A stretch of DNA of 17,600 bases, from UHGV virus genome UHGV-0195027; one strand, 5' to 3'. The translations under genes were made by a program, and so were the position numbers. This stretch comes from a virus. The notes below the pieces were generated by a model. The model saw nothing but the letters and a program-made list of their open reading frames with translations, made no database searches and had not been told where the DNA came from. Below, one piece after another: positions 881-2,208 of the stretch. Position 1 is the stretch's first letter; each line of letters opens with the position of its first letter.

Positions 881-1267
881 GTGAAAAAAATAAGTTCAGT
901 AATAATTCTTTGTGTGTCATTTTTTGTTCTGCAAGGATGTAGTGACTCTAAACACCTAAAACAAACTACTAATACTAATACTAATACTATGGATTCAGAA
1001 CAATATCAATATATGAAGCAATGTATAAAGAACGCAAATGCACTGGTAAATCTTAATGAGAAATATAAAAGCACATTGAAAGAAATTCATTTTCTTATTA
1101 GTGAAGCTAAATCTTACGCTACAAGTAATGTCTCCAGTTATGTGGAAAAAACAATTACACCCTTGTTCGAGTATAAAATAAATTATAAATGTAATGAGAT
1201 TGAACAAGAGCTTATTGAAGAGTACAATAATAAGATTCAATCCGCATCGGTGGTTAAGGTGCGATAA
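881..1267 (+). CDS. putative lipoprotein
   Basis: GTG start at 881 preceded by GAGG (871-874). N-terminal signal peptide ending in lipobox L-Q-G-C. Very AT-rich. Stop overlaps the next start (TAATG at 1265-1269), suggesting an operon. Confidence 0.55.
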   Translation: MKKISSVIILCVSFFVLQGCSDSKHLKQTTNTNTNTMDSEQYQYMKQCIKNANALVNLNEKYKSTLKEIHFLISEAKSYATSNVSSYVEKTITPLFEYKINYKCNEIEQELIEEYNNKIQSASVVKVR

Positions 1268-2208
1268 TGAAGGACAATGAAATAAAAAGTTTTTTGCTTT
1301 TATTATTTTTATTTCCATCTTTTGTTATGGCTGGGGGGCATAAGGATGATTTTTTATCAGATCTATTAAAATTAGATATCAGTGAGCTGGAGGCGTCTTC
1401 TGTTCACAGCGAACAGGTTAAAAAAGAAAAAAAACGTAAAAAGATGGCGAATACAGCAAGCCAAAAGGTTTCAGAGCTGTCTGAACTGACGGCACAGATT
1501 GCAACTCTCAAACAGCAGAACGCAAAGTTACAGGAAGGCCAGAAAGGTTCTGCAGAGGCACTGGCCAGAAAAGGGGCAGAGCTGTCTGAACTGACAGCAC
1601 AGATTGCAACTCTCAAACAGCAAAATGATAGATCGTTAGATAAAAAGAATCCGGGGGATACGCTGTCTTATTCGTTAGGAGCATTATATTTACAGAAAGC
1701 GATGATAGAGTCAAAGGAACTTGAAATCAATGGACTTCAGATATCGGAAAAAACTTTGACTCAGGGCTTTAATGATGCCTCTAATAAAAAATTGAAACTT
1801 TCAGGAAAAGAAATTAATGATGCATTATTACTGGCGAACAGGAAGGTTCAGAGTAATACTAAAAAAACAGAAGCCTTGTTAAGGCAGAAGATTGGTAACA
1901 AACAGTACAGAAAGATTCAATTAGGTGTATATTTGGTTGTAAATAAAAAAGGAAAGGAGGCATATTCAGAAACAGATGTGATAAGGTTTGATATGTTTGA
2001 AAATAAATTGGATGGGACATCTATTAAAAACACAATGAATGCATCCGTTTTATACAAAAATGCAGATTCATTGATAAAAAAAATTGTTAAACATGGTTTG
2101 AGAGGTGGAAAAGTTACTATATATGGCAGGGCCTTATATATATATAAGGTATTGCCCAAAAATATGAGTGGGAATGAAATAATATCAATAACGTTTTCTT
2201 TTAAATGA
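1267..2208 (+). CDS. FkpA/Mip-like protein: FKBP-N dimerisation-type domain, coiled-coil repeats, degenerate FKBP-like C-terminal region
   Basis: Hydrophobic N-terminus (FLLLLFLFPSFVMAGG). Segment SYSLGALYLQKAMIESKELEINGLQISEKTLTQGFNDASNKKLKLSGKEINDALLLANRKVQ follows the FkpA N-terminal pattern (SYALGASLG...KLSDQEIEQTLQAFEARVK, recalled from memory). C-terminal part has FKBP-like topology but poor conservation. Confidence 0.5.
   Translation: MKDNEIKSFLLLLFLFPSFVMAGGHKDDFLSDLLKLDISELEASSVHSEQVKKEKKRKKMANTASQKVSELSELTAQIATLKQQNAKLQEGQKGSAEALARKGAELSELTAQIATLKQQNDRSLDKKNPGDTLSYSLGALYLQKAMIESKELEINGLQISEKTLTQGFNDASNKKLKLSGKEINDALLLANRKVQSNTKKTEALLRQKIGNKQYRKIQLGVYLVVNKKGKEAYSETDVIRFDMFENKLDGTSIKNTMNASVLYKNADSLIKKIVKHGLRGGKVTIYGRALYIYKVLPKNMSGNEIISITFSFK
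1472..1625 (+). repeat. two 49-bp near-identical direct repeats (1472-1520 and 1577-1625), 105 bp apart, in-frame within the FkpA/Mip-like gene
   Basis: cagagctgtctgaactgacRgcacagattgcaactctcaaacagcaRaa occurs twice with 2 mismatches; each copy encodes ELSELTAQIATLKQQN. Confidence 0.85.

Follow-up and report, generated by a model that had tools for sequence, protein, structure and literature searches.

A strictly linked lipoprotein gene and a predicted FkpA-like pseudo-isomerase gene in UHGV-0195027: a possible tethered envelope chaperone of adhesin loci

In a 17,600-nucleotide (nt) stretch of virus genome UHGV-0195027, referred to here as the window, two adjacent open reading frames (ORFs), ORF1 and ORF2, encode a predicted lipoprotein and a predicted secreted protein with an FkpA-like fold. 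Comparison with their homologues indicates that ORF1 and ORF2 are a fixed cassette inherited as a unit, and that ORF2 is probably an FkpA-like pseudo-isomerase, neither Mip nor FkpA; we use the label pseudo-isomerase because ORF2 fails both the FKBP_C signature test and the pocket-residue test. We propose, with a rough probability of 0.55, that the pair works in the envelope as a chaperone or scaffold without catalytic activity, tethered by way of the lipoprotein, and serves as an accessory of adhesin loci. The family is small, uncharacterised, and horizontally mobile. Neither Pfam nor NCBIfam includes a model for it, literature searches turned up no paper, and all sources call its members hypothetical, "TolA", or "FKBP N-terminal domain-containing"; we rejected the name TolA, which some sources use for ORF2 relatives, as a low-complexity artefact. 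New to this analysis are the strictly linked lipoprotein, the N-terminal motif of ORF2, its hypervariable stalk, and the recurrent placement of the pair at adhesin loci. The features of the pair, numbered from the first letter of the window, are as follows.

871-874, + strand: ribosome-binding site GAGG, 6 nt 5' of the ORF1 GTG start (read from the sequence)
881-1267, + strand: ORF1, lipoprotein precursor of 128 amino acids (aa), GTG start (ORF list, homologues)
881-940, + strand: ORF1 signal peptide and lipobox, MKKISSVIILCVSFFVLQG-C20, with Ser at +2 (alignment)
967-989, + strand: (TACTAA)x3.8 repeat encoding a Thr-Asn linker 3' of the lipidated-Cys codon (TRF)
998-1261, + strand: predicted three-helix bundle, ORF1 residues 40-127 (AlphaFold2, confident)
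1267-2208, + strand: ORF2, predicted 313-aa secreted FkpA/Mip-fold protein with an N-terminal repeat stalk (ORF list)
1267-1332, + strand: predicted Sec signal peptide, MKDNEIKSFLLLLFLFPSFVMA / GG (by inspection: n, h, and c regions, V-M-A at −3 to −1)
1351-1380, + strand: N-terminal motif FLSDLLKLDI, ORF2 residues 29-38 (columns F29 to D37 nearly invariant)
1472-1625, + strand: stalk, two copies of a 105-nt (35-aa) helical repeat (direct repeat)
1651-1893, + strand: FKBP_N-like three-helix dimerisation domain and long connecting helix, ORF2 residues ~129-209 (Pfam, model)
1906-2205, + strand: degenerate FKBP-fold domain, ORF2 residues 214-313 (model, Foldseek)

A first-pass annotation of this DNA, made by a model from the letters and an ORF list, had described an AT-rich two-gene operon with coupled stop and start. 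Both ORFs lie where it placed them, and they meet in the sequence TAATG, in which the ATG of ORF2 shares 1 nt with the TAA stop of ORF1. Its figure of about 30% GC held for ORF1 (29.5%) and for the C-terminal module of ORF2 (C-terminal 579 nt, 31.6%), but was slightly low for ORF2 as a whole (34.8%), the repeat-bearing N-terminal part of which has 39.9%; the window has 48% GC and its right half 54%. A homologous lipoprotein gene stood directly upstream of the FKBP-like gene in 25/25 loci with upstream DNA, taken from Escherichia, Klebsiella, Raoultella, and metagenome contigs, and the two genes mostly overlapped or were no more than 20 nt apart. Both occurred on the identical 9 of 72,556 plasmids. 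When pairwise identities of the ORF1 and ORF2 proteins were compared over 17 loci, the two were correlated with r = 0.96 (Mantel test, 0/2000), and the ratios of nonsynonymous to synonymous substitution (dN/dS), 0.15 for the ORF2 head and 0.07-0.08 for the ORF1 bundle, indicated purifying selection on both.

In every host examined the flanks were less AT-rich than the pair, which was located on IncF plasmids or in islands beside insertion sequence (IS) elements. The pair was rare in E. coli, where 11 of 5426 complete genomes had it, and common in the Klebsiella oxytoca complex; the foreign origin previously suggested for it is supported by its base composition, its location, and its rarity in E. 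coli. The named hosts were E. coli, E. marmotae, Salmonella (a partial sequence), several Klebsiella species, Raoultella, Lelliottia, Cedecea, and an Erwinia metagenome-assembled genome, enteric genera being the only hosts seen for the family. An association with virulence had also been suggested, but this analysis gave no evidence of a link with virulence or with any pathotype.

ORF2 alone matched the Pfam family FKBP_N (PF01346) at E = 7e-4 with 20.8 bits, just below the 22-bit cut-off, and its C-terminal module alone matched FkpA at E = 0.14. There were 47 close homologues of ORF2, and a HMMER scan of 1.84 billion representative proteins yielded 36 clusters (50% identity) for the module, which in all 36 was C-terminal and stood behind N-terminal regions of very different length. 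A family profile made from 25 C-terminal modules was run against PDB; it matched E. coli FkpA at E = 2e-20 over both domains, aligning to FkpA residues 12-108 at the N-terminal domain, and Legionella Mip at E = 4.7e-8. FKBP_N was matched by 24 of the 25 members, the best at 1.9e-13, in agreement with the FkpA/Mip-type N-terminal segment that had been proposed. For FKBP_C (PF00254), ORF2 gave no match at E ≤ 1 and 23 of the 25 members gave none at E = 0.1; the two positive members were the most distant ones and still have the sequence IPPxLAYG.

An FKBP-like C-terminal fold, on which the first-pass annotation had staked its proposal, was predicted in the AlphaFold2 model of ORF2 residues 122-313, which had a pLDDT confidence score of 93.2 and a pTM of 0.78. 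Helices were placed at fragment positions 8-32, 40-51, and 59-88, and the C-terminal strands and helix followed FKBP topology. The best Foldseek matches were full-length FkpA (1q6u, E = 2.8e-11), LpMip, and PaFkbA (to 4e-9), followed by isolated FKBP domains at a root-mean-square deviation of ~3 Å, so that FkpA was the best match for ORF2 by both profile and structure. By its modelled fold and its N-domain homology ORF2 would belong to the FkpA/Mip superfamily, the FKBP fold of the second half of the domain resting on the predicted model, and the FKBP_N homology suggests that ORF2 dimerises.

Several of the residues that line the isomerase pocket of FKBP12 have been replaced. Tyr26 corresponds to Met243 of ORF2, Phe36 to Ile253, and Asp37 to Lys254, and for all three positions HMMER and hhalign agree. 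ORF2 has no Trp at all and therefore no equivalent of FKBP12 Trp59; in a secondary-structure-guided alignment Ile270 occupies that place. In the second half of the domain, where the mapping is less certain, a manual secondary-structure-guided alignment placed Ile308 at Phe99 and indicated that Tyr82 is probably kept as Tyr293; here the model pattern KVTIYGR and then ALYI was matched to FKBP12 71-82. The family consensus shows the same pocket substitutions. We concluded that the pocket has probably been remodelled into an aliphatic groove, a change that suggests loss of isomerase activity, and the description of the peptidyl-prolyl isomerase domain as degenerate was borne out.

For ORF1 there were 99 homologues, from Escherichia, Salmonella, and Klebsiella, whose records give either no name or "lipoprotein". 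Residues Q18, G19, and C20 of its lipobox VLQG-C20 were unchanged across 20 homologues, an L[Q/S][G/A]C lipobox was present in 20 of the 21 loci parsed, and the residue at +2 was S, T, A, N, or G, and never Asp, in 20/20 loci. Under the Lol +2 rule, Asp at +2 is an inner-membrane retention signal, and lipoproteins without it are sorted to the outer membrane. Because the lipobox is unchanged and +2 is never Asp, ORF1 is predicted to be an outer-membrane lipoprotein, and the earlier view of the first gene as encoding a lipoprotein stands. Residues 1-36 were disordered in the AlphaFold2 model (pLDDT < 50). The Thr-Asn linker differs among relatives, which have other numbers and variants of the repeat (TN/NA/SA) and appear in the alignment as a low-complexity block of varying length; tether length is thus predicted to vary without frameshift by means of the hexanucleotide repeat. 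The bundle keeps Cys48, Cys104, and the motif ITPLFEYKINYKCN across homologues, and would be capable of forming a disulfide (Cys48, Cys104).

The small first gene is missed by automatic annotation on several plasmids. A homologue at NZ_CP010201.1 64616-64999 has an intact frame and is absent from the RefSeq annotation, and for seven E. coli plasmids the homologue has no feature in the PLSDB gene table, which is incomplete by design; the gene is short, AT-rich, and begins with GTG, and these missed calls look like a gap in annotation. One distant homologue of ORF1 bore a weak precomputed Pfam tag, "YuaE", which we set aside: it was not reproduced, and its sole relevant literature match was an unrelated B. 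subtilis DinB-like protein.

ORF2 consists, in order, of the signal peptide, the FLSDLLKLDI motif, a basic spacer, two 35-aa helical units, and the 190-residue C-terminal module. Cleavage is predicted after VMA22, and all full-length relatives have the same signal layout. The family pattern F[LI]xx[ILV]xx[LIV]x[LIV] was always found 2-10 residues past the predicted cleavage site and was kept in distant relatives although the rest of their N-terminal region is unrelated. Its spacing (i, i+1, i+4, i+7) would be that of an amphipathic helix. We considered whether the motif could be a pilin donor strand and rejected this on inspection, since the pattern is helical and not alternating.

The coiled-coil repeat reported earlier as an insertion is real, with a 35-aa unit, but it forms a stalk N-terminal to the FKBP_N-like segment and does not interrupt the FkpA-like module or separate its two domains. 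The repeat cores, of 49 nt each (1472-1520 and 1577-1625), are 96% identical and 105 nt apart. Stalk length, measured from the motif to FKBP_N, ranged from 60 to 1615 residues among relatives, the minimum being a plasmid of strain M10 with one repeat; K. oxytoca complex orthologues had stalks of 159-409 residues. Head modules that are 100% identical sit, on plasmids, in proteins of 278, 313, or 558 residues, preceded by 1, 2, or about 9 repeat copies (the 278-aa protein, with one copy, in plasmid NZ_CP010201 and the 558-aa protein in pYZLc4-1_138k); E. marmotae has eight copies. Because proteins of such different length share identical heads, repeat number changes very rapidly, and the head and the N-terminal motif are left unaltered. 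The longest stalk was found in Klebsiella sp. BIGb0407 (NZ_JANUEQ010000005.1, L020:5030-10567), where an uninterrupted frame of 1846 aa contains ~1615 stalk residues and the 190-aa head and follows a lipoprotein gene at 4437-5033. By inspection each 35-aa unit holds a Gly-rich break, QEGQKGS, which suggests that the stalk may consist of flexibly joined segments and not of one rigid rod. A general heptad register for the stalk was rejected, the unit being 35 aa (5 heptads) in E. coli vs ~50 aa in K. oxytoca.

Weak matches to the NCBIfam family TraP (NF033885, IncI1 conjugal transfer), far below its cut-off (E = 3e-3 and 3e-4), were seen at 1408-1632 of the window (ORF2 residues 48-122) and at L003:8447-8851 (residues 16-150 of a K. 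oxytoca protein). Both cover the stalk, and the K. oxytoca match also covers the signal peptide and the N-terminal motif. We took these matches as probably reflecting coiled-coil composition.

Chaperone-usher operons of no fewer than three classes were found near the cassette, in every case on its strand. A chaperone-usher operon of the kappa K88, alternative Ecp/Mat, or Fim/Pap type was adjacent in about 6 of about 13 lineages, with 50-220 nt between it and the cassette in two of them. The operons beside the cassette in Escherichia were K88-like. In K. oxytoca GCA_021210535.1 (L014:3344-12037) the cassette directly follows the ecpE-like last gene of an Ecp/Mat operon (MatB, EcpB, EcpC, EcpD, EcpE-like); the gaps between genes there are only ~50 and 10 nt, so that the cassette looks like a part of that operon, and a BigA-type autotransporter lies 2 kb further on. 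A Fim/Pap-type operon was directly downstream of the cassette on one metagenome contig and 2-3 kb from it in three further lineages. SPATE and other autotransporters and EAL/GGDEF genes were also frequent neighbours. With roughly a dozen chaperone-usher loci per genome, adjacency by chance would be expected in ~6% by our own rough estimate, so that about 6 of about 13 lineages, compared with this figure and with no matched control, looks like enrichment near fimbrial operons. Neither ORF matched a pilin, PapD-like chaperone, usher, or other fimbrial family in Pfam or NCBIfam.

We propose the following mechanism. ORF1 would be sorted to the outer membrane and would present its three-helix bundle at the end of the flexible Thr/Asn linker. 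ORF2 would be exported by Sec, and its C-terminal 190 residues would form the FKBP_N dimerisation domain, the long helix, and the FKBP beta-domain. With an aliphatic pocket, the head would most likely cradle clients without catalysis, as a holdase or scaffold, in the way that FkpA works independently of its isomerase. FkpA chaperones outer-membrane proteins independently of isomerase activity, and its client surface is made up of the inner faces of both domains, united by N-domain dimerisation (PMC10031210). The N-terminal motif of ORF2 may dock on the ORF1 bundle, so that a dimeric head would be held at the outer membrane on a leash of variable length; we infer this docking and tethering because the motif is conserved and helix-like, the lipoprotein is obligate and co-diverging, and both proteins contain variable spacers. 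On this view the cassette would be a horizontally mobile, AT-rich accessory that accompanies adhesin loci, with chaperone-usher operons as the commonest setting.

Several points weigh against this proposal. For the fold, the AlphaFold2 alignment contained the two members with a canonical FKBP_C; a profile without them covers the N-domain and the first two FKBP strands only, and the C-domain alone, compared with FkpA and FKBP12, gave an hhalign E of 0.007 and a probability of 2%. For the lack of catalysis, the conserved Tyr, probably the Tyr82 equivalent, and the hydrophobic pocket suggest that residual isomerase activity or ligand binding is possible. For the tether, contact between ORF1 and ORF2 and the dimer are inferred, as are the compartment (periplasm or cell surface) and a role in the biogenesis of fimbriae, autotransporters, or adhesins; moreover, stalks of up to ~1600 residues, if extended coiled coil, would far exceed the width of the periplasm and would fit a surface or in-plane arrangement better. 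For the adhesin link, no fimbrial genes were found within 8-10 kb in about half of the lineages, among them the commonest, the chromosomal copy of the K. oxytoca complex, and the fimbrial link may be co-clustering of AT-rich surface-factor genes.

A wider version of the proposal, which we offer as a tentative extension, is that the cassette is a hitherto unrecognised, class-independent accessory of enterobacterial adhesin loci. Its FkpA-like holdase would be a dimer without catalytic activity, caught by its N-terminal helix on the lipoprotein, with a rapidly evolving stalk to set its reach. The product would be either a tethered chaperone for the biogenesis of ushers, pilins, or autotransporters or, if exported, a Mip-like surface fibril tuned to capsule or fimbrial length. 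A rival explanation places the protein on the surface altogether: the lipoprotein would be the anchor, the stalk would project the head past lipopolysaccharide or capsule, and the head would bind a host or matrix ligand, making the protein an adhesin or anti-adhesin and no periplasmic chaperone. The hypervariable length agrees with this, at 159-1615 residues in heavily capsulated Klebsiella vs 60-340 in Escherichia, as does the excess of long stalks, if extended, over the width of the periplasm; the neighbours are fimbriae, SPATE and other autotransporters, and EAL/GGDEF genes, and surface-associated Mip is among the structural relatives, Legionella Mip being a collagen binder. However, the pair comes without genes for a device that would translocate it across the outer membrane, the small ORF1 protein is a bundle of helices and not a barrel, and the length contrast between Klebsiella and Escherichia is anecdotal. 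With the QEGQKGS break in each unit, long stalks argue for the surface without proving it, and we regard a surface location as possible but tentative.

It is unlikely, in our judgment, that the pair is a dedicated chaperone-usher accessory, that is, a tethered holdase, generic across fimbrial classes and co-transcribed with their operons, that aids usher insertion or subunit delivery at the outer membrane. The same-strand adjacency in about 6 of about 13 lineages and the short gaps in two of them are what such a factor would give, but about half of the lineages, including the most widespread, have no nearby fimbrial genes, canonical fimbrial operons function without such a factor, and in the window 500 nt of decayed sequence lie between the pair and the fae genes. 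We consider it distinctly improbable that ORF2 is an active but divergent Mip-type prolyl isomerase. The model retains the FKBP fold with high confidence, the place expected for FKBP12 Tyr82 is taken by a conserved Tyr (Tyr293 or Tyr286), and the pocket is still hydrophobic; however, none of the 23 core members keeps an equivalent of Asp37, Trp59, Tyr26, or Phe36, the 80s loop has become shorter, and FKBP_C is not matched. That the two ORFs are decaying remnants carried along with IS-rich plasmid DNA can be dismissed as very improbable, for although the surroundings are full of pseudogenes and IS fragments and PGAP misses ORF1 on several plasmids, dN/dS is 0.07-0.15, the frames are intact across genera, the motifs are invariant, and the fold is predicted with confidence.

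As a predicted tethered, non-catalytic relative of FkpA, the ORF2 protein can be compared with several known systems. Like E. coli FkpA (a periplasmic FKBP-type isomerase and chaperone; 1q6h, 1q6u), it would be Sec-exported and have an FKBP_N three-helix domain, a long helix, and an FKBP beta-domain. Unlike FkpA, to which it is ~21% identical, it has replaced pocket residues and no FKBP_C match in Pfam, lacks the FkpA C-terminal tail, and carries a docking-like motif, a stalk of 60-1615 residues, an obligate lipoprotein partner gene, and an accessory, AT-rich status. It shares the two-domain V-shape of Legionella pneumophila Mip and Pseudomonas PaFkbA (1fd9, 8bjc, 7dek; E = 2e-10 to 4e-9 in the fold search), which are envelope-associated and linked to host interaction; in contrast to ORF2, a predicted pseudo-isomerase, these are active isomerases that bind FK506 and rapamycin and have neither a stalk nor a partner lipoprotein. 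In Neisseria and Chlamydia the Mip-like protein carries its own lipid anchor and is attached by it to the outer membrane, whereas here the lipobox is on a separate, co-evolving partner and attachment would be indirect. Catalytically inactive FKBP domains that serve as interaction modules occur in FKBP38 and as the FK2 domains of FKBP51/52. FKBP38 (3ey6, 2awg), which was among the better single-domain structural matches, has likewise kept the FKBP fold and lost pocket residues, but it and the FK2 domains are eukaryotic and cytosolic and differ in architecture, so that the resemblance is in principle only.

Interest in FkpA and Mip proteins has been in their roles as envelope chaperones and also as virulence factors and drug targets, and the cassette protein appears to keep their scaffold while dropping the isomerase pocket. 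It may therefore offer a clean system in which to separate chaperone or scaffold function from catalysis, and it points to tethering and reach, that is, stalk length, as evolvable parameters of an envelope chaperone. The recurrent placement by unrelated fimbrial classes and autotransporters suggests that adhesin display in E. coli, E. marmotae, Klebsiella, and their relatives has a helper or modulator that has gone unrecognised. The family would be the more interesting if either the tethering or the adhesin-display role were true.

In the window, positions 1-423 are the 3' end of a faeI-like minor-subunit gene of the K88/F4 type, 92% identical to the E. coli A30 locus. The sequence from 424 to 880 is decayed and consists of short pieces, 77-89% identical, of genes that are intact in E. 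marmotae, namely a 213-aa ORF and an EAL-domain protein gene; faeJ and the SPATE autotransporter gene, which precede the cassette in E. marmotae, had no match in window 1-880. Downstream of ORF2 the order is transposase fragments, a split AraC/GyrI-like gene, ISEc12, a P2-like tail module, and a cation-efflux gene, with coordinates as follows.

3228-3629, − strand: AraC/Rob-type regulator, GyrI-like effector-domain ORF
3675-3959, − strand: AraC/Rob-type regulator, helix-turn-helix (HTH_18) ORF
4140-6442: ISEc12 (IS21 family, istA/istB)
6717-17159: P2-like phage tail module and cation-efflux (FieF-like) gene

An AraC-type regulator remnant near the pair had been noted before. The remnant exists, but it is incidental and unrelated to the pair: the gene is a pseudogene, split into two ORFs, and it travels with the plasmid island and not with the cassette in other contexts. 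We rejected it (3228-3959) as a regulator of the pair, since it is split, has transposase fragments between itself and the pair, and is missing from all non-plasmid contexts. An ORF of 144-153 aa lies directly downstream of ORF2 (window 2604-3065) and is conserved in every copy from plasmids and metagenomes (L031:11365-11799 is one); in Pfam it gave weak HTH/transposase-like matches only, and it is probably what remains of an IS3-family OrfA.

The left 6.4 kb of the window is 99.8% identical to IncF-type plasmids of mouse, chicken, and human E. coli. After ISEc12 these plasmids have an anion permease, malic enzyme, and choloylglycine hydrolase in place of the phage tail module, which in the window contains tail-fibre assembly, sheath, tube, tape measure, gpU, and gpD genes. 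That ISEc12 is followed by different genes in the window and in the plasmids points to an IS-mediated junction. Metagenome contigs show both arrangements, the plasmid type and the prophage-joined type of the window, the latter on one contig (L035).

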